A stretch of DNA of 38,319 nt from Candidatus Heimdallarchaeota archaeon (GCA_021399345.1 JAAFKI010000076.1:1-38319), one strand, 5' to 3'; numbered from the stretch's first letter, positions 569 to 25,347 are shown. Numbers and translations are program-made. The notes: generated from the sequence alone by a model not told the origin.

Positions 569-1210
569 TCATTTCTCAGATTTTTTTATGTGCTTAATTG
601 TTGAATCGATAATGATCCCTAGAGCTTTCGTTGTTAGTTCCAATGACATTGAAGGAAGTTTTTTACCAACAACTTGTTCAGGTAAAGATGGAACATGAAC
701 AAATCCTGCAGAAATATTTAGGTTTTCATTATTTATAAAATGCATTAAATGGAAGAAAATCTGATTACATCCATATGTACCCGCGCTATTAGAAATATTG
801 ACGGGAATTTTACTTTCTTCCAAATCTCTTTTAATGTGTTGTAAAGGTAATGTAGAAAAATATCCTGCTGGAGCATTTTTTGATAGTATTTCGTTTTTTG
901 GGGATTCTCCACAGTTGTATGTTGATTTGATTACATCTGCTATATTAATTGCTACACGTTCTAGAGATATTTCATGTCCGGATGATTGCCCTGTACAAAT
1001 GACAGCCAAAGGTTGTTCATGTTGGATCAGTTGCTCTATAGTTGTTCGAATCTTTTTATATCGTAAGGGAATTTCAAAGACTTTTACAGTATATCCCTCT
1101 ATTACTTTATCTTCAAACTCTCTACATGCTAGTATAGAAGGATTAATTTCTGAACCCCCAAATGGTTCAAAACCTGTCAGTAGAATAGTATCTGTCATTC
1201 CAATCACCAA
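569..1210 (-). CDS. pcp: pyroglutamyl-peptidase I (peptidase C15)
   Basis: ILLTGFEPFGG..NPS, LERVAIN (Glu), SAGTYGCN (Cys) and GFVHVP (His) motifs. The true start may be the second Met (MTDTILL). Confidence 0.95.
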   Translation of the reverse strand: MVIGMTDTILLTGFEPFGGSEINPSILACREFEDKVIEGYTVKVFEIPLRYKKIRTTIEQLIQHEQPLAVICTGQSSGHEISLERVAINIADVIKSTYNCGESPKNEILSKNAPAGYFSTLPLQHIKRDLEESKIPVNISNSAGTYGCNQIFFHLMHFINNENLNISAGFVHVPSLPEQVVGKKLPSMSLELTTKALGIIIDSTIKHIKKSEK

Positions 1211-14611: not shown

Positions 14612-15985
14612 TTAAGGTAAATCATGTTTGTAATGTTTATCTGACTCTAAATACTCTTTTCCATTGAAAATTAGGTATTCGGCATGGACATCATGAATAT
14701 CGCCATATTTTTGATACCAGGGGGATGTCCCCAAGAAAGCCCATTTTTCTGCTGTTTCTGGAAGTATTTTCAGCTTTCTCACATCTTCCTCAGAGTTCTT
14801 TAATGATTCTATTAGAGTCAGAGAAGCTGTTAATATTACAGCTGTGGGGGTTCTTCTAATAGATGAATGATTCCATAGTCTGGTTTTTTTTATTATTATA
14901 TTCACGATTTCGTTTGTGAAAATTTCATTACTAATTTTTGATTTATTAAGGAGTTTTTCAATGATATCCTTAAGCTGCATTTCACTGAAAGGATACTCTT
15001 TAACAATATCATAGATATCAAAATTAGTTCGAGTAAATTCAGGAATGTCTTTACCACCTGAAATAATCCAAAAGAGAACATCTAAATCTGGAAATCTTTT
15101 CCTCAATTTCTCCTTTAGTAGTTCTACATTTATGTCAACTTCATCTAGAAATAGAATAAATTTTGAATTTGAAGCATGAGTAGCTACCCACTTACTAACT
15201 CTGTCTGCATCATTTTCAGGATTAAATTCTATTTCTTTGTACTTTCCAGTATCATCTTTCCAAAACTCTGATCTGTAAATGAAAGGTATTTTTAACTTCT
15301 TACACTCTTTCATAAGAGAATAAATAATTTGAGTTTTTCCAGATCCTCCATATCTGCCATAAATATGCGCGTTATTTTCAGGTTGAATGTTATCCCTAAC
15401 TTCCAGAATTTGTTCCTCAAGTATTTTTACTATTGAATGCTCAACTGTGAAATTATGTCTCATCCAGCAACATTCTGGATCTATTAAAGGTTTGAATTTA
15501 GGGAATTTACTAGCAATTTCCTTTGCTTCGTCATGAGTTAGACCTATGTTAATCTTTACCATATCTTCCTCTTTATGCATAAAAGGGATTTTAGGTATGA
15601 TGTCACTCCCATAGAGAAGTTTTCTGGTTTTTTTCAGATTTAGCTGATCTTCAGGCATTAAACAGTGATTATTCTTAATGTTGATATACCAAAGATTAGC
15701 CATTGTTCGGATATAGCTTCTTGAAAAAGATGAAGCAAAAGAAACCCCACCATCCCACCCAAAATCATCTTGTAGTTTATCATAAACTAAATCTAAGAGT
15801 AGAAGATTCTCTAGACTATAATCTTCATCATTTATAATGATTACAATACCTCTCTTATCCTTAGACCATTTGTCGAAAAAAGCCATCTCTTTGCGAAATT
15901 CATAGATAGCCACCACTTCTGGAACAATTGCTAGTACTTTCTCAATGAAGGAGTTGAGAAGCTCTTCTCTCTCACTCATTTGCAC
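14612..15985 (-). CDS. degenerate nucleotidyltransferase-like N-domain fused to a P-loop (AAA-like) ATPase
   Basis: HIYGRYGGSGKT (Walker A) and ILFLDEVD (Walker B). The N-terminal part (VVAIYEF..GIVIII..KLLYGSDIIPKIP) parallels the neighbouring NTase-like ORF. Confidence 0.6.
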   Translation of the reverse strand: MQMSEREELLNSFIEKVLAIVPEVVAIYEFRKEMAFFDKWSKDKRGIVIIINDEDYSLENLLLLDLVYDKLQDDFGWDGGVSFASSFSRSYIRTMANLWYINIKNNHCLMPEDQLNLKKTRKLLYGSDIIPKIPFMHKEEDMVKINIGLTHDEAKEIASKFPKFKPLIDPECCWMRHNFTVEHSIVKILEEQILEVRDNIQPENNAHIYGRYGGSGKTQIIYSLMKECKKLKIPFIYRSEFWKDDTGKYKEIEFNPENDADRVSKWVATHASNSKFILFLDEVDINVELLKEKLRKRFPDLDVLFWIISGGKDIPEFTRTNFDIYDIVKEYPFSEMQLKDIIEKLLNKSKISNEIFTNEIVNIIIKKTRLWNHSSIRRTPTAVILTASLTLIESLKNSEEDVRKLKILPETAEKWAFLGTSPWYQKYGDIHDVHAEYLIFNGKEYLESDKHYKHDLP

Positions 15986-15989
15986 GCAC

Positions 15990-16889
15990 TTACAAGTTTT
16001 CTATTATATTTCTTAACTCCATAAAAACTCTACTATAATTAGCATATCCACTATCAACTTTGAATAACTCTGTTAATTTAGAGATTGATACACCTTTAAC
16101 AGAAAAAGCCTTTTCTAAGGTGAATAACAATAAATCTCTGCTGTTTTCAACAACCCCCATAACACTTGAGAGAGAAATATTTCTCTGTCTACAACTAGCA
16201 ACTTCTACAACAAAGTCTCCAAGTTTTCCAAAATACTCATTAGAAAACCAATAAGCACCTTTCATTTTCCCAATAATATCCTTTTTTTGGATAGAGTAAA
16301 GGATTCCAGGTAGAGTAAGTATCCAATTTGTCGCAAGGTCATAATTAGGAGAACTAGAATATTGGAAAGGATACAATTTGGTTATTTCCTCAAGTTTAGG
16401 GATTTCTGTTAAAAATTGGTGCCAGAAGCATTCCAATGGAGGAATTGGAAAATTCTTCCTTAAATCTTCACCATAAAGAACTTCTCCTTTATTCATAATT
16501 AGAAAATCATCTTTCATTGACAAGGGATACTTACTAATTAGTTCTTGTTGAAGGTTACGAACAATCATTCCTTCAAAATCTTGATGTGATATTCTAGGAT
16601 TTTCGAGCATTTCTATAGGAACAAAAACAACTTCCAGAATTTTCGCAAAATCCTTATTCATACTTTCAAGTTTTTTGATAATATTGTCTAATTCATCGAA
16701 ATCTTTTTCCCAGAGCGATCGTTCTAAGATAACAATAATATCAATTGTACTATATCTCTTTGAAAAATCATCTAAAACGATATCCCCGAATAGAATAAAA
16801 GACCTAGTTGCTAAAGAAGTAGCAGTGTATTCAACGAAAGTTTTGATGAATCTAGGTAATTCAGGATACCTGTCATAGGTGACCTTCAT
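15990..16889 (-). CDS. Pol-beta-superfamily nucleotidyltransferase-like protein (AadA/ANT-like architecture) with altered catalytic motif
   Basis: ILFGDIVLDDF..YSTIDIIVIL versus the consensus hhGShA.GDF...SDhDhh; GEVLYGED; helical C-domain with IIGKMKGAYW. Confidence 0.7.
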   Translation of the reverse strand: MKVTYDRYPELPRFIKTFVEYTATSLATRSFILFGDIVLDDFSKRYSTIDIIVILERSLWEKDFDELDNIIKKLESMNKDFAKILEVVFVPIEMLENPRISHQDFEGMIVRNLQQELISKYPLSMKDDFLIMNKGEVLYGEDLRKNFPIPPLECFWHQFLTEIPKLEEITKLYPFQYSSSPNYDLATNWILTLPGILYSIQKKDIIGKMKGAYWFSNEYFGKLGDFVVEVASCRQRNISLSSVMGVVENSRDLLLFTLEKAFSVKGVSISKLTELFKVDSGYANYSRVFMELRNIIENL

Positions 16890-20049: not shown

Positions 20050-20057
20050 TTTAAATA
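20050..20057 (+). promoter_or_regulatory. putative TATA box for the membrane-protein/RING operon
   Basis: TTTAAATA 26 nt before the ATG at 20084, spacing compatible with a leaderless or very short-leader mRNA. Confidence 0.4.
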
Positions 20058-20083: not shown

Positions 20084-22660
20084 ATGAAAGCCGAAAAAGA
20101 AAAACGGATTCATTCAGTACTGTCAAATGTATTCTATTACACATTCGTTTCTCTTGTTATTGCTATTTTAATTATCTCCTTAGTTCTAGAAAATTCTGAT
20201 TTAGTTCTAAATATTCTATTTATTTCTTTGCTAGTTAGTACGGTTGTTATTGTTTTTTACTTGACAGTACAGATGTTAAGGTATAATATCAGTGTCAATA
20301 AAAAAGCACAGATAGGAATATTCCTGATTGTAGTAGGATTTTTGCTTATACTATTTTCTACAGGTAAGCAGATAACTTTAGGTGAAAATTTCATCCTAAA
20401 TATCCTTGGATCGACATTCTTTGTTTATTGGGGAATTGGTTCAATTGTAGCAGGAATAATGGTAGAATTAACCTTTTTAGATCAATTTATTTGGGATATG
20501 ATTGAAAAACCTCTGGTATTTCTCTGGAAAAAACTTGTTTCATTTGTTAAATGGTTTGTAGAACACTGGAAAAATATTGTACTCTATTCTTTGGATATAA
20601 TTTCTTTAGGTGGTATTGTAACAATTGCTATTTTATGGCCAACAGACTGGTCAACAGAATGGTGGAAAATAGTTATATTTTCAGTATGTTGTGTTTACCC
20701 TATCGTACATCACTCAAAGCGAATTTGGCGAGTGATTAAATATGTAGCGGTCGACATCTTCTATGAATTTTTCAAGACTCTATTTATTGCTCTAAAAGAA
20801 GCTCTGAAAGCAATTTGGGATAAAATCGTTTCCTTCTTTGTATTTATTGCTGAGCATTGGTGGACTATTCTTAAAGAAATTCTTCGTTTAGCAGGAGTAG
20901 CGGGTGGTGCATCATTCATTTACTATGGTTTCGATTTACCACAGTATGTCTATTTCATATGGATTGGTATTGCAGTAATTGTTTTCAGTCAATTATTTAC
21001 AAGAAAAGTGGTTCTACAGGGAATTTGGAATGCTTTTGTCAGTTTAGTTACTTTCATTTGGGATAAAATCGTTGCATTTGCTGATTTTGTATGGAGTATA
21101 ATTGATGCAATATTCTTATTCATAATCGAACATTGGTGGACTATTCTTAAAGAAATTCTCCGTTTAGCAGGAGTAGCTAGTGGTATAGTTTTGATCTATT
21201 TTGGACTTAAGCCAGGAGGTTTTGAATACTTAGTATGGTTAGGTTCAATTGCTATAATAATAAGCGAAGTGTTTACAAGAAAGGCTGTACTAAAGAAAAT
21301 CTGGGATATATTTTCTCAATTCTTTATATTCATTTGGGAAAATATCATCAAACCATATTATAAACGAATAATAAATGAGACAATCAGACTCATATTTACA
21401 GGCGCAGGTGTATTTGCACTCTATCTTGCTTTTACTGAAGGATACCAGTACTTGTTCTATGTTGGATTCCTAACAATTTTATTGGCTGAAATAATACTCA
21501 GGAAACCAGTTCTACTCAAACTAAAAGAAATAGTAGTTAATCTCTCTTTATTCTTCTGGGAAATTATACTCATTCTGAAAGAACCCTTCCTTGCTCTGTG
21601 GAATAAGTTTGTTGCATTCCTTAAGTTTTTGAAAGAGCATTGGATAAAAGTTATTCTTTACACACTAGATTTTGCTGCTTTAGTATCTATTCTTTACTTC
21701 TCTGTTACATTTGAAGCTGAACAAGCAGACACTTGGTGGCATATTCTGATTCTGACTGCTTGCAGCTTGTATATACCTTGCCATCATTACAAGACAGTTT
21801 GGAAGGTTTTGAAATTCATAGCAGTGGATATATTCTATAATCCGATTGCAAAAATTATCAGCGTAACAAAAGATTTCTTTGTGAAAATATGGGAGATAAT
21901 TGTAGAGATTTTCGCATTTATCGCTGAACATTGGTTGGTTATTCTGAAGGAGTTTATACGTTTTGTTGGGATGATAGGTGGATTTGTACTTATCATCTAT
22001 GGTGATAGAAACCGAGAATATTGGTATTGTATTATTTTAGGAGTATTTAGTGTCGTTTTCTTTCAATTACTAACTAGGAAGAAAGTTATGATCAAATTCT
22101 ACGAATTCTTCAAAGCTCTAATAGAACTATTAATTGAACGTAGAGTGCTAATCTTTAGAATTCTTGGCTTAGCAGCTGTCATTACTGGAATTGCTATTGG
22201 TTTCGAAAGAAATTGGGGATATGATGCGTATTTATCATTATCAATTGGTGGAACTTTCCTCCTATTCTCCCATTTCATTTTCCACCCTAAGAAATTTTTG
22301 GAGTTTCTTAAGAAAATTCCCGAATTTTTTAGCAATATATTTGTTACAATATGGTTGACCTTGAAGACTGTTTTTGGATATGTAGGTGATAATTTCCTGA
22401 CATTACTTTTGCTGTCAGTTGCACTTTTTAGTATAGCTTATGGATTTGATTTGCTACTTACATTTATTAAACCAGAGATTGATTTTATAGGAATATTTGA
22501 AGGCTTGGCCTTACCTATTAGGATGTTCATTGGAGCAGGATTGATAGTAATGGCTTCAGTAGCAATTATTATCCTTAGAAGGCGTGGAGAACTTAAGAAA
22601 CTAAAAACTGGGCGCTCAAAGAAACTAGCAGATCAAATTGAGGAGTTGTGGAAGAAATGA
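20084..22660 (+). CDS. large polytopic membrane protein built from internal TM-hairpin plus amphipathic-helix repeats
   Basis: 858 aa, very hydrophobic and Trp-rich; recurring EHW, LKE..R..G, FTRK.V and HH...W.V.K..AVDIFY blocks. Confidence 0.85.
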   Translation: MKAEKEKRIHSVLSNVFYYTFVSLVIAILIISLVLENSDLVLNILFISLLVSTVVIVFYLTVQMLRYNISVNKKAQIGIFLIVVGFLLILFSTGKQITLGENFILNILGSTFFVYWGIGSIVAGIMVELTFLDQFIWDMIEKPLVFLWKKLVSFVKWFVEHWKNIVLYSLDIISLGGIVTIAILWPTDWSTEWWKIVIFSVCCVYPIVHHSKRIWRVIKYVAVDIFYEFFKTLFIALKEALKAIWDKIVSFFVFIAEHWWTILKEILRLAGVAGGASFIYYGFDLPQYVYFIWIGIAVIVFSQLFTRKVVLQGIWNAFVSLVTFIWDKIVAFADFVWSIIDAIFLFIIEHWWTILKEILRLAGVASGIVLIYFGLKPGGFEYLVWLGSIAIIISEVFTRKAVLKKIWDIFSQFFIFIWENIIKPYYKRIINETIRLIFTGAGVFALYLAFTEGYQYLFYVGFLTILLAEIILRKPVLLKLKEIVVNLSLFFWEIILILKEPFLALWNKFVAFLKFLKEHWIKVILYTLDFAALVSILYFSVTFEAEQADTWWHILILTACSLYIPCHHYKTVWKVLKFIAVDIFYNPIAKIISVTKDFFVKIWEIIVEIFAFIAEHWLVILKEFIRFVGMIGGFVLIIYGDRNREYWYCIILGVFSVVFFQLLTRKKVMIKFYEFFKALIELLIERRVLIFRILGLAAVITGIAIGFERNWGYDAYLSLSIGGTFLLFSHFIFHPKKFLEFLKKIPEFFSNIFVTIWLTLKTVFGYVGDNFLTLLLLSVALFSIAYGFDLLLTFIKPEIDFIGIFEGLALPIRMFIGAGLIVMASVAIIILRRRGELKKLKTGRSKKLADQIEELWKK
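20855..21177 (+). repeat. intragenic 47-bp direct repeat (20855-20901 and 21131-21177), 1 mismatch
   Basis: cattggtggactattcttaaagaaattct[t/c]cgtttagcaggagtagc, 276 bp (92 codons) apart. Confidence 0.92.
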
Positions 22661-24198
22661 GTAAAGATAAAACCCATTTGAAACCTAAGGATCAGAAAGT
22701 TCCTGCTCTGACTACTATGTGGATAGGATTGATAGTTGGACTACTGGGGCTGATAGGAACAATGATTACTGGACTCGCTGAAAGTGAGGAATGGCTCTTC
22801 ATGTTGTTTATAGGTGTGTTAGTCGCTGGTTTCTTCATTCTCTTCTTCTCAATAATCTTGCGTCGAATTAAGAGAAAAGGTATAGATTATTTCGTTCTTG
22901 GAGCAATAACTGCATATTTAGGATTTCTCATGCTTGCTCTACCAACAGTAATTTACATAATTACATTCAAAATGGAAGATTTTGGAATCGAACCTTACAT
23001 TTTCTTTGTAATTATGGGTTTTGGTGTTCTTTTGATTATCTTTGGATTTTTCATAGAAGCCTACGATCTTAACGAGAAACTTCTAGAATTATTTAGAAGG
23101 ATAGGTGAATCCCTAAGAAAAATGCTTCAGAGAATTAAATGGAAGTTGGTATTATCTCCCTGGAATTTTTTATCGATAGCAGGAATAATAGTTATCGTTC
23201 TTACAGCTGTTGATGTATTGCCCTTGTACATCTACTACCTAATTGGAGGAGGTTTGATCTTGATAAACATCATTATTCACCTAAGAAGAGAAATAGCTGA
23301 AATGCTCAAAGATTTAGGCAAGATTTTGCTAACACTTTTACAATCATGGTGGAGAGGAATAAAATACATACCTAAACTAATAGTTAGATTAGCTAAATTT
23401 CTTTATGATCCTGAAAGATTCAAAAGAATGGTTAGGTGGGTTAAAGCTAAACTTATAGCAATCTTCACTTGGATTGGCGAAGCATTCAAATTTATCTTTG
23501 TTCGGAATTACCTTCTTCTCTTTGTTTTAGGGATAGTAATATTCTTCTTACTCTTCTATAAGGTGGATAATGTGGGCTTGGAAGTTAGTTTATCCATATC
23601 TGCTTTGGTTTGTGGAGTTGCAATAATCAAACCAATAATTGATTGGAGAGAAAATTTTGGGGAAGGGATAAGTAAAGCTAGATTATTTCTATACAAAACA
23701 GGTCAAAAATCAAAGAAAATCTTACGCATCAGAAGTATAACAAGATGTCCACATTGTATGAGACCAAATCCAATTACTAGACGAGAATGTTGGAACTGCA
23801 AGAAAGACATGCCAAGATGTTTAATCTGTAACAATATAGTCGAGAGAGAGACAGAAATTTCTAGATGTAAATCGTGCGATAATATATTCCATGTGAAGCA
23901 TTTGAAGACTTGGTTGAGATTTAACCCCAAGTGTCCAGTGTGCCATCAAGAAATGAAAAAGATAAAGACTGAAGTGTTTAAACCCCCATTAGAAGAAGAT
24001 CAAATAACAGAAAATTTTGATAAACAATCTATAGATACTATCCCTGATACTGAAGATTTAACTCAAGGAGAAATAGAGAAACTTGAAAAACTTGAAGTGG
24101 AATCAGCGTTCGTTACATGCAATCACTGTAAAAATAAAGTTTCATCAGTTGCAAAGTTCTGTTCTATTTGCGGTAATCCTATGGATCCGGAAGAATAA
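22657..24198 (+). CDS. multi-pass membrane protein with zinc ribbon, RING finger (putative E3 ligase) and terminal zinc ribbon
   Basis: About 8 hydrophobic helices, then CPHC..CWNC, then CLIC-x12-CKSC-x4-H-x2-H-LKTWL-x5-CPVC, an acidic linker and CNHC..CSIC. ATGA overlap with the upstream stop and a GAGGAG SD-like site. Confidence 0.85.
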   Translation: MSKDKTHLKPKDQKVPALTTMWIGLIVGLLGLIGTMITGLAESEEWLFMLFIGVLVAGFFILFFSIILRRIKRKGIDYFVLGAITAYLGFLMLALPTVIYIITFKMEDFGIEPYIFFVIMGFGVLLIIFGFFIEAYDLNEKLLELFRRIGESLRKMLQRIKWKLVLSPWNFLSIAGIIVIVLTAVDVLPLYIYYLIGGGLILINIIIHLRREIAEMLKDLGKILLTLLQSWWRGIKYIPKLIVRLAKFLYDPERFKRMVRWVKAKLIAIFTWIGEAFKFIFVRNYLLLFVLGIVIFFLLFYKVDNVGLEVSLSISALVCGVAIIKPIIDWRENFGEGISKARLFLYKTGQKSKKILRIRSITRCPHCMRPNPITRRECWNCKKDMPRCLICNNIVERETEISRCKSCDNIFHVKHLKTWLRFNPKCPVCHQEMKKIKTEVFKPPLEEDQITENFDKQSIDTIPDTEDLTQGEIEKLEKLEVESAFVTCNHCKNKVSSVAKFCSICGNPMDPEE

Positions 24199-24357
24199 TG
24201 GGGAAACTAAAAAAGGTATAAAGTGGTTTAGGCAAACTTCTCTCAACTTGCAGTGTTATTAATGGGCAGTTCCCACTTTGTATACATTTAAAAGCATAAA
24301 GAACAATATTTTGAATTAGAACCGTTTAGAGGTTAATATAGAAATTATCAAAGAGGT

Positions 24358-25347
24358 ATGATTATGGTAGAAGTATTAGAGTGGCCCCTAGGTAGAGGCG
24401 ACGAAATAATGTATAGACACCCTCGTGATACAATCAACTGGGGAGATCAAGTAAATGTCCTTCCAAACCAAGTAGCAGTTTTCATAAAAGATTCTGTAGT
24501 TTATGACGTGCTAAAAGGTGGAAGACACTTCATGAAAACAAAGAATATTCCACTGTTGACAACTTTCCTGTCAAGAATTGTTGGTTTTGATAAAAGTCCA
24601 TTTAATTGTCAAGTGATTTTTGTCAATCTAGCAGATTTTCAAGGAAAATTCGGTGGACGTTCACAAACACAAGAATTAGCACCTTTGCAATTCTTCGGGG
24701 ATTATTACTACAAAATTGACAATATACAAAAATTCGTTTTTGAAATCGCTGGAAATAGAAGTATTTACACGACTGCATCATTTAATGAATTTTTCAGAAC
24801 ATTTGTTGTTGAATCAGTAATCAGTAAACTTTCCGAGAAAAGCATAACAGATGTAATGTCAAATTTGGGTAAAACATCAGATTTCATTGAAGATGAAGTG
24901 AAAGGCGACCTATTAGAAATGGGAATAAAACTGAAGAACCTCAAATTCGGAGGAATCGATACAACACCTGAATATAGAGATCGTTTATTCTGGATGCGTT
25001 CTGGTGTCGCTGCACAAGATATTCAACAATACGCAGGTATGGCTAAAGTTGTAGAAAAAATGCCTGAAGGTGGTAGTGGTTTAACTGGAGCTGTTATGAT
25101 AAACAACCTTTTCTCAAGAAGCGAACTAAAACAAGCTGATAAAATAGAGAAAAAAGGTGAAGTAGAATCAGCATTCATTACTTGTAACCAATGTAAAAAC
25201 AAAGTTTCACCAGCTGCAAAATTCTGTGCTAATTGTGGAGACCCAACAGACGATGAAAAGAAGGGTGAAGTGAAGTTCTGCACTGAATGTGGAGCTAAAA
25301 ACGCACCTGATGTTAAGTTCTGTGGAAATTGTGGACATAAATACTAA
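24358..25347 (+). CDS. SPFH/Band-7 domain protein (YdjI/COG4260-type) with C-terminal double zinc ribbon
   Basis: VLEW..IMYRHP..I.WG.Q..V...QVAVF....GRH...T.NIP.L....SPF..QVIFVN, typical of the YdjI-like Band-7 subgroup; four CxxC motifs at the C-terminus. Confidence 0.88.
   Translation: MIMVEVLEWPLGRGDEIMYRHPRDTINWGDQVNVLPNQVAVFIKDSVVYDVLKGGRHFMKTKNIPLLTTFLSRIVGFDKSPFNCQVIFVNLADFQGKFGGRSQTQELAPLQFFGDYYYKIDNIQKFVFEIAGNRSIYTTASFNEFFRTFVVESVISKLSEKSITDVMSNLGKTSDFIEDEVKGDLLEMGIKLKNLKFGGIDTTPEYRDRLFWMRSGVAAQDIQQYAGMAKVVEKMPEGGSGLTGAVMINNLFSRSELKQADKIEKKGEVESAFITCNQCKNKVSPAAKFCANCGDPTDDEKKGEVKFCTECGAKNAPDVKFCGNCGHKY

Follow-up and report, generated by a model that had tools for sequence, protein, structure and literature searches.

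Candidate membrane-bound RING ubiquitin ligase and repeat-hairpin partner encoded by an overlapping gene pair in a Heimdallarchaeota archaeon

Asgard archaea encode ubiquitin, ubiquitin-activating (E1) and ubiquitin-conjugating (E2) enzymes, soluble RING proteins, and ubiquitin-binding parts of ESCRT (endosomal sorting complex required for transport); to our knowledge, what tags membrane proteins in these organisms has not been established. In the literature searched, neither a polytopic RING protein nor ERAD (degradation associated with the endoplasmic reticulum [ER]) was described for Asgard archaea. Here, we report the computational analysis of three neighboring genes (positions 20084-25347) on a 38,319-nucleotide (nt) stretch of DNA from Candidatus Heimdallarchaeota archaeon (GCA_021399345.1; JAAFKI010000076.1:1-38319), referred to below as the window. 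A preliminary description had grouped the three, which encode a repeat membrane protein, a membrane RING protein, and an SPFH protein, into one ERAD-like module. We find that genes 1 and 2 form a conserved coupled unit, which probably specifies a RING-type ubiquitin ligase bound to the membrane and, as its partner, a protein of repeated hairpins, and that the SPFH gene adjoins this unit in a single genus.

Locus organization and protein architecture

Three open reading frames, all on the plus strand, were found at 20084-22660 (gene 1; 858 amino acids [aa]), 22648/22657-24198 (gene 2; 516/513 aa), and 24358-25347 (gene 3; 329 aa, counted from 24358). As first described, genes 1 and 2 are joined by an ATGA (22657-22660) in which the gene 2 ATG shares bases with the gene 1 TGA, an arrangement indicating translational coupling. 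A TATA-box-like element, TTTAAATA (20050-20057, plus strand), was read from the sequence ~27 to 30 nt 5′ of the gene 1 ATG and is the likely promoter of a two-gene operon, whose mRNA would be leaderless or have a very short leader. A PADLOC search with all three proteins returned zero matches.

The polytopic membrane protein encoded by gene 1 is built of repeated units, each comprising a transmembrane hairpin and a cytoplasmic amphipathic helix. Residues 132 to 450 align with residues 487 to 788 (32% identity; E value, 5e-53), and the units, ~90 aa long, are up to 51% identical to one another (residues 244 to 330 versus 336 to 422). Two adjacent units share a 57-nt stretch with 93% DNA identity (codons 257 to 275 versus 349 to 367), which points to a recent unit duplication or gene conversion. 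Repeat number appears to be labile, since ortholog length spans about 500 to 950 aa. The protein matched zero Pfam or NCBIfam families, and sequence searches placed its family in Heimdallarchaeaceae only, with every match annotated as “hypothetical.” Judging from how close homologs are named, the organism belongs to Candidatus Heimdallarchaeaceae.

The membrane domain of gene 2 (22657-23745) was modeled with AlphaFold2 using 22 orthologs (predicted local distance difference test [pLDDT] score, 77.7) as eight membrane helices forming four hairpins, which are separated by long amphipathic helices and followed by a zinc ribbon, the RING finger, a disordered acidic linker, and a second ribbon; a model of the membrane domain alone reached a pLDDT of 79.0. 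The model and the finger pattern given below bear out the earlier account of about eight transmembrane helices and a RING with Trp and a terminal CPxC. Several motifs of the membrane domain are conserved, including G-F-x2-E-x-Y-D-L-N, and R70, G82, G89, P96, G123, G130, L138, N139, and S167 are invariant among the orthologs. The ribbon and RING are predicted to face the cytoplasm, because the N terminus and loops such as that after the second transmembrane helix are basic (positive-inside rule).

The membrane domain had zero matches in Pfam, and a Foldseek search of the PDB with the model of this domain alone gave nothing below an E value of 0.1, with only generic helical-bundle matches. Structure comparison with VIA gave de novo bundles as the top matches (Z score, about 9), tied with an HRD1 chain (9uav_B; Z score, 8.9) that aligned model residues 10 to 134 with chain residues 133 to 266 at a root mean square deviation (RMSD) of 6.5 Å and was not colinear. 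Homology to HRD1 on the strength of this match was rejected, as its Z score was no higher than that of de novo designs and the alignment was not colinear. Searches of the ESM Atlas by feature (gene 1 and gene 2 proteins) and by structure (gene 2 membrane domain) returned nothing usable. A sequence profile of the membrane domain retrieved 70 cluster representatives out of 1.84 billion; ten were looked up, and the five with names were all Asgard (Hod-, Hermod-, and Promethearchaeota), while the majority of the representatives scanned against Pfam had zinc ribbons or a RING. Comparison of this region with the gene 1 family by hhalign gave a probability of 84% and an E value of 7e-6, in sequences that are both biased by their transmembrane composition; the gene 2 membrane domain is possibly paralogous to the gene 1 units, a suggestive match on which we do not rely. 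A complex prediction for gene 1 residues 600 to 858 with the gene 2 membrane domain scored 0.20 against a mark of 0.32, a value that speaks neither for nor against an association.

Zinc ribbon and RING finger of gene 2

The ribbon preceding the RING (CxxC-x10-CxxC; 23746-23799, plus strand) has four cysteines (C364, C367, C378, and C381) that are invariant in the 22 orthologs and are also found in more distant members. The RING finger (23818-23943, plus strand) follows the pattern C-x2-C-x12-C-x2-C-x4-H-x2-H-x3-W-x6-C-P-x-C, a variant that differs from RING-H2 in having Cys as ligand 4 and His as ligand 6 (C4-H-H-C2). Across the 22 orthologs and 15 more distant members, down to 20% overall identity, each of the eight ligands is either invariant or conserved to at least 90%, W419 is invariant, P427 is at least 90% conserved, and the alignments keep a hydrophobic residue (I/V) two positions past the first Cys and K, R, or H directly past the last. 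The hydrophobic position, the Trp, the Pro following ligand 7, and the basic linchpin following ligand 8 correspond to the residues of the E2-binding surface. The Pfam RING family zf-RING_2 (PF13639) was present in most of the gene 2 orthologs listed. The gene 2 family profile matched solved RING-H2 ligases (Arkadia, RNF165, RLIM, RNF38, and EL5) with E values of 1e-7 to 3e-8, and the modeled RING (local pLDDT, 85 to 92) superposed on RNF165 (5ulk_C) with a template modeling (TM) score of 0.81 and an RMSD of 1.2 Å over 46 columns and on gp78 (2lxh) with a TM score of 0.59 and an RMSD of 2.5 Å.

A C4-H-H-C2 RING occurs in seven proteins of the genome, among which gene 2 alone is polytopic. The same zinc finger (ZnF)-RING type was found in genomes compared at class level (f5 and f6), mostly in soluble proteins without a large membrane partner. 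One further protein of the host genome (~690 aa; G000 C169:162971-164992) has the same tandem of ribbon and C4-H-H-C2 RING, and its orthologs (~690 to 699 aa) occur in nearly all relatives and far more widely in the class than the membrane pair; it may be the ancestral home of the gene 2-type ZnF-RING.

Conservation of the gene 1-gene 2 pair

Most genomes of the genus have a full-length gene 2 ortholog, as do three additional genera of its family and the order's families f2 and f3; in one genome of those additional genera (G025), gene 2 is represented by a C-terminal fragment only. At each of 14 loci retrieved, the gene directly upstream of gene 2 overlaps or abuts it by 0 to 13 bp and encodes a product of 500 to 850 aa with 11 to 21 transmembrane helices. 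Two distant members, from a metagenome-assembled genome (MAG) labeled Hodarchaeota and an unlabeled metagenome contig, likewise have an overlapping upstream gene (899 and 951 aa; ~20 transmembrane helices), identified as the partner by position and helix count alone. Altogether, overlap or abutment of 0 to 14 bp was seen in 16 of 16 orthologous loci inspected. Partners of the gene 1 type are detected by phmmer within the family only, and homology of the f2 and f3 upstream partners to gene 1 emerged from profile comparison (hhalign probability, 97.2%; E value, 2.9e-11).

The flanks of the pair change with lineage: hypB/hypA in the window; a NiFe hydrogenase large subunit and HycI in G028; a P2-domain protein, a TPR protein, and a pyroglutamyl peptidase in f3; and others again in the Hodarchaeota MAG and the metagenome contig. 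Since the overlap of gene 1 with gene 2 is kept throughout, selection appears to act on the pair and not on the neighborhood. The synteny expected of all three genes thus held for genes 1 and 2, across the order and beyond, and failed for the SPFH gene, which is adjacent in one genus only. A pyroglutamyl peptidase gene (Peptidase_C15) also lies in the window (569-1210), ~19 kb from the pair, and is <4 kb from it in several f3 genomes (L031 11793-12395); this proximity is probably a coincidence.

Ubiquitin, ESCRT, and PspA in the host genome

The host genome (88.6% complete) contained matches to two ubiquitins, four E2s of the UBC type, an E1-like ThiF beside each ubiquitin, and two Snf7 proteins (ESCRT-III). 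Ubiquitin, E1, E2, and ESCRT, for which the preliminary description had advised looking, were all found. PspA, named alongside them, was not found over the cut-off, the best PspA_IM30 match in the genome scoring 16.7 bits against 33.9. The two ubiquitin genes belong to separate clusters. In one (G000 C123, ~64.4 to 71.8 kb), ubiquitin and its E1-like ThiF are accompanied by an E2-like gene and two Snf7 genes; in the other (G000 C136, ~29.5 to 34.9 kb), they are accompanied by a RING protein and an E2.

The SPFH gene and the shared zinc ribbon

Gene 3 encodes an SPFH protein (Band_7_1; 71.8 bits against a cut-off of 24) with two C-terminal zinc ribbons (residues 273 to 328). No hydrophobic or transmembrane segment was found in the protein, which is soluble; with Band_7_1 as best family and no transmembrane helix, it is of the YdjI type and not the erlin type, as had been recognized. 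Alignment of starts and upstream regions showed that the start conserved among orthologs is the ATG at 24364, not 24358, which places the gene at 24364-25347 (plus strand), with GAGGT at 24353-24357, six nt ahead of the ATG. Conservation of the 100 nt upstream of this start extends over 12 loci of the genus and does not depend on which gene precedes them (the RING gene, FTR1, GT2, or some other); these 100 nt include a TTTAAAAG box ~70 nt before the ATG (24287-24294 in the window, plus strand); family-level SPFH loci have TTTAAAAA boxes at a similar position. Because the box is conserved whatever gene lies 5′, the SPFH gene is likely to be a transcription unit with its own promoter, and read-through from the RING gene may also occur.

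Only within a single genus do the RING and SPFH genes lie next to each other. Even there, three genomes (G001, G023, and G016) have a GT2 glycosyltransferase gene on the opposite strand between them, and in G001 and G023 an FTR1 iron permease gene likewise intervenes (insertions at L042 5904-8521, L043 2892-5521, and L044 2864-4474). In the sister genera checked (G028 and G029), the RING and SPFH genes are on different contigs. In most f3 genomes, the pair is present and an SPFH ortholog absent, the f4 and f6 genomes have SPFH and no full-length RING-gene ortholog, and G008 keeps SPFH, with no pair found.

Sister-genus loci (L047, L048, and L049) were compared with positions 14612-16889 of the window. 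In G027, G028, and G029, the SPFH gene lies near homologs of window genes 14612-15985 and/or 15990-16889, a 602-aa pilin-like gene, and hypBA. Homologs of both window genes, the first ATPase_2-like, are codirectional and just upstream of SPFH in G029; in G027 the 15990-16889 homolog is so placed, and in G028 the 14612-15985 homolog is convergent to it. Since SPFH keeps the same neighbors in sister genera, the pair appears to have entered a preexisting SPFH neighborhood in this genus. If SPFH has an operonic partner, genes 14612-16889 would be better candidates than the RING pair.

The closely similar ribbon noticed at the outset in the RING and SPFH proteins is real: gene 2 matches the first SPFH ribbon over its last 43 residues with 68% identity (E value, 1.9e-11), and the DNA is 82% identical over 85 nt (24086-24170 versus 25151-25235), far above chance. 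The gene 2 cassette occupies 24086-24198 and the source copy within the SPFH gene 25151-25235, both on the plus strand. All SPFH orthologs have the ribbon and, among gene 2 orthologs, only the closest do (at least 70% identical); most gene 2 orthologs end near residue 445 to 470, about 50 to 70 residues earlier, without the cassette. As every SPFH ortholog has the ribbon and few RING orthologs do, the alignments indicate a single, recent, local copying event in one subclade, by which ~85 to 110 nt of SPFH sequence, ~1 kb downstream, were added to the RING gene at its 3′ end. The cassette has retained its Cys ligands in G006, G009, G013, G018, and G024, and since these copies are diverged, it is probably functional. 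In the subclade, nothing else hints that the RING and SPFH proteins are linked, and this hint is weak but not negligible.

Discussion

On balance, genes 1 and 2 constitute a conserved coupled unit, whose probable products are a RING ubiquitin ligase bound to the membrane and its repeat-hairpin partner. Under this reading, a translationally coupled operon would provide a membrane-embedded RING complex, in which the gene 1 product would form a scaffold of hairpin and amphipathic-helix units and the gene 2 product, with a similar, possibly paralogous, eight-helix domain, would display the ribbon-RING tandem on the cytoplasmic face. The RING would recruit a ubiquitin-charged E2, one of the four UBC-like candidates, and the ligase would ubiquitylate membrane or membrane-proximal proteins, with either ESCRT or Cdc48/proteasome receiving them afterwards. 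The SPFH gene would be a separate unit that came to adjoin the pair in one genus. Of the tagging at the membrane on an SPFH scaffold that was originally envisaged, the part concerning a membrane RING ligase is thus supported by the RING profile, the E2-contact residues, and the ubiquitin cascade, and the part concerning the SPFH scaffold is not.

Several observations weigh against a conserved ligase. In the window's gene 2, the linchpin residue is His, not Arg or Lys, and the protein scores 24.3 bits against zf-RING_2, for which the cut-off is 27.3 (with the same model, a six-frame search of the genome gave gene 2 at 29.8 bits versus 27.3). Ribbon and RING together are colinear with the C termini of GATOR2 and IFT-A proteins (E values, 1e-5 to 1e-7). 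The pair is not class-wide among the genomes sampled. It was not found in G008, G010, and G019, which are of the same genus, or in G027 and G030, and G012, also of the genus, has a gene 1 remnant with in-frame stops and no RING ortholog. This patchy distribution implies that the pair is accessory or dispensable. The G012 remnant (C187:153-398) is 87 aa long with an in-frame TAG and TAA, in a genome where the SPFH gene is present, and suggests that the pair is decaying there.

As the main alternative, the pair could form a complex that shapes or scaffolds the membrane and whose ZnF-RING is an assembly module, the role that such domains chiefly have in GATOR2 and IFT-A; repeats of hairpin and amphipathic helix would insert as wedges into one leaflet, thereby bending or organizing the membrane. 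It draws on the colinearity of the tandem with the C termini of WDR24, MIOS, WDR59, WDR19, and IFT122 (E values, 1e-5 to 2e-7) and on the models, in which short hairpins, their outer loops tiny, and long amphipathic helices lying on one face make up nearly all of both proteins, a layout that may resemble that of reticulon- or REEP-type shaping proteins. We nonetheless consider it unlikely: the RING alone matches active monomeric or dimeric RING-H2 ligases best, the E2-contact Trp and Pro and the basic linchpin position are kept across deep divergence, and the genome holds a complete ubiquitin cascade. Ligase and membrane-shaping roles are in any case compatible and not mutually exclusive. That the functions are unrelated, the overlap reflecting the packing of a compact genome and gene 2 being a zinc-binding membrane protein with a role outside ubiquitin, such as metal handling next to hypAB, is hardly credible. 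The position of the pair after hypB/hypA in the window and the hydrogenase large subunit and HycI in G028 would agree with it; against it, the flanks are wholly different in f3, the Hodarchaeota MAG, and the metagenome contig, yet the overlap is kept, and the pattern of RING ligands and E2 surface is conserved.

The original proposal, that all three proteins make up one membrane quality-control complex in which SPFH serves as scaffold or cage for the RING ligase and its partner, like erlin-RNF170 or HflK/C-FtsH, is in our judgment quite improbable. In its favor, many genomes of the genus have the RING and SPFH genes side by side, and retention of the copied cassette with its cysteines in several species would fit a shared binding partner. 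The soluble SPFH protein YdjI of Bacillus subtilis, which has a C-terminal zinc-finger motif and needs YdjG/YdjH for membrane recruitment, offers a precedent for recruitment by membrane proteins (PMC8581546). Against this stand the limits of that adjacency, namely its restriction to one genus, the GT2 and FTR1 interruptions, and the separate contigs in G028 and G029, together with the association of SPFH with homologs of 14612-16889 and hypAB in G027 to G029. Each part also occurs without the other (the pair mostly without SPFH in f3, SPFH without a full-length RING gene in f4/f6, and SPFH without the pair in G008), the SPFH promoter-like box is independent of the upstream gene, and the genome has no PspA over the cut-off. 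On these grounds the SPFH gene is not retained as a third member of the module; its linkage is not conserved, and it is likely to be transcribed separately, two outcomes that the preliminary description had listed as refuting its module. The ubiquitin and E2 genes, whose absence it had listed as well, are present. The SPFH part of the idea can be dropped, and no effort need go into a three-protein complex.

Returning to the pair as a membrane-bound ligase, a further and more tentative reading, possible rather than probable, is that it represents an archaeal membrane-integral ubiquitin ligase with a transmembrane fold unrelated to that of any eukaryotic ubiquitin ligase (E3) family and with a ZnF-RING type later found in GATOR2/SEA and IFT-A. 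If this were true, ubiquitin tagging of membrane proteins for ESCRT sorting or for extraction and degradation would predate the eukaryotic endomembrane system. With an intact E2 surface at the membrane, the pair is a concrete, testable candidate for the missing tagging step and a possible analog, with no homology found, of the polytopic ligases that act in ERAD and in endosomal sorting.

Comparison with known systems

Erlin1/2-RNF170 resembles the locus only in the idea of an SPFH protein beside a membrane RING ligase. Gene 3 is a soluble Band_7_1 protein, the gene 2 RING is C-terminal after eight transmembrane helices, no RNF170-type domain was found in the gene 2 protein with Pfam, and the linkage is not conserved. 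Gene 3 is closer to the PspA-YdjGHI (SamGHI) system of B. subtilis, with which it shares Band_7_1, solubility, a C-terminal zinc motif, and neighboring membrane proteins, one of them with a zinc ribbon. Unlike that system, it has no PspA over the cut-off in its genome, its neighborhood is genus specific, and the membrane proteins are unrelated to YdjG/H by Pfam.

Hrd1/synoviolin and gp78/AMFR have, like gene 2, about eight transmembrane helices and, immediately after them, a RING-H2-class RING on the cytoplasmic side, and the gene 2 RING profile matches the RINGs of synoviolin (E values, 2e-5 to 3e-4) and AMFR (1e-3 to 6e-3). A dedicated membrane partner may be a further likeness, suggested for gene 2 by the gene pairing. 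Gene 2 differs in its long amphipathic insertions between hairpins, its C4-H-H-C2 ligands, and the ribbon before the RING; unlike that of Hrd1, its partner is a repeat hairpin protein and not Hrd3/SEL1L or Der1, and there is no ER. Neither Hrd3/SEL1L nor Der1/derlin was found beside the pair at any locus inspected, where the search was confined to these loci and not made genome-wide. Because homology of the membrane domain to Hrd1 was undetectable with Pfam, Foldseek, and VIA, “ERAD-like” describes at best an analogy of layout.

GATOR2/SEA (WDR24, MIOS, and WDR59) and IFT-A (WDR19 and IFT122) share with gene 2 a ribbon followed by a RING with CxxC-x4-HxxH-x3-W, matched over ~70 residues (E values, 1e-5 to 2e-7); in contrast to these proteins, gene 2 has no beta-propeller or alpha-solenoid and carries the tandem on a polytopic membrane domain. 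The best RING matches are Arkadia/RNF111, RNF165 (ARK2C), RLIM, and RNF38 (E values, 1e-7 to 3e-8; TM scores, 0.75 to 0.81; RMSD, 1.2 to 1.9 Å). Gene 2 departs from these soluble RING-H2 ligases in that ligand 4 is a Cys from a CxxC knuckle (not C-x-H), ligand 6 is His (not Cys), and the protein is membrane embedded, and it shares with them the hydrophobic residue after the first Cys, the Trp, the CPxC, and the basic residue after the last Cys.

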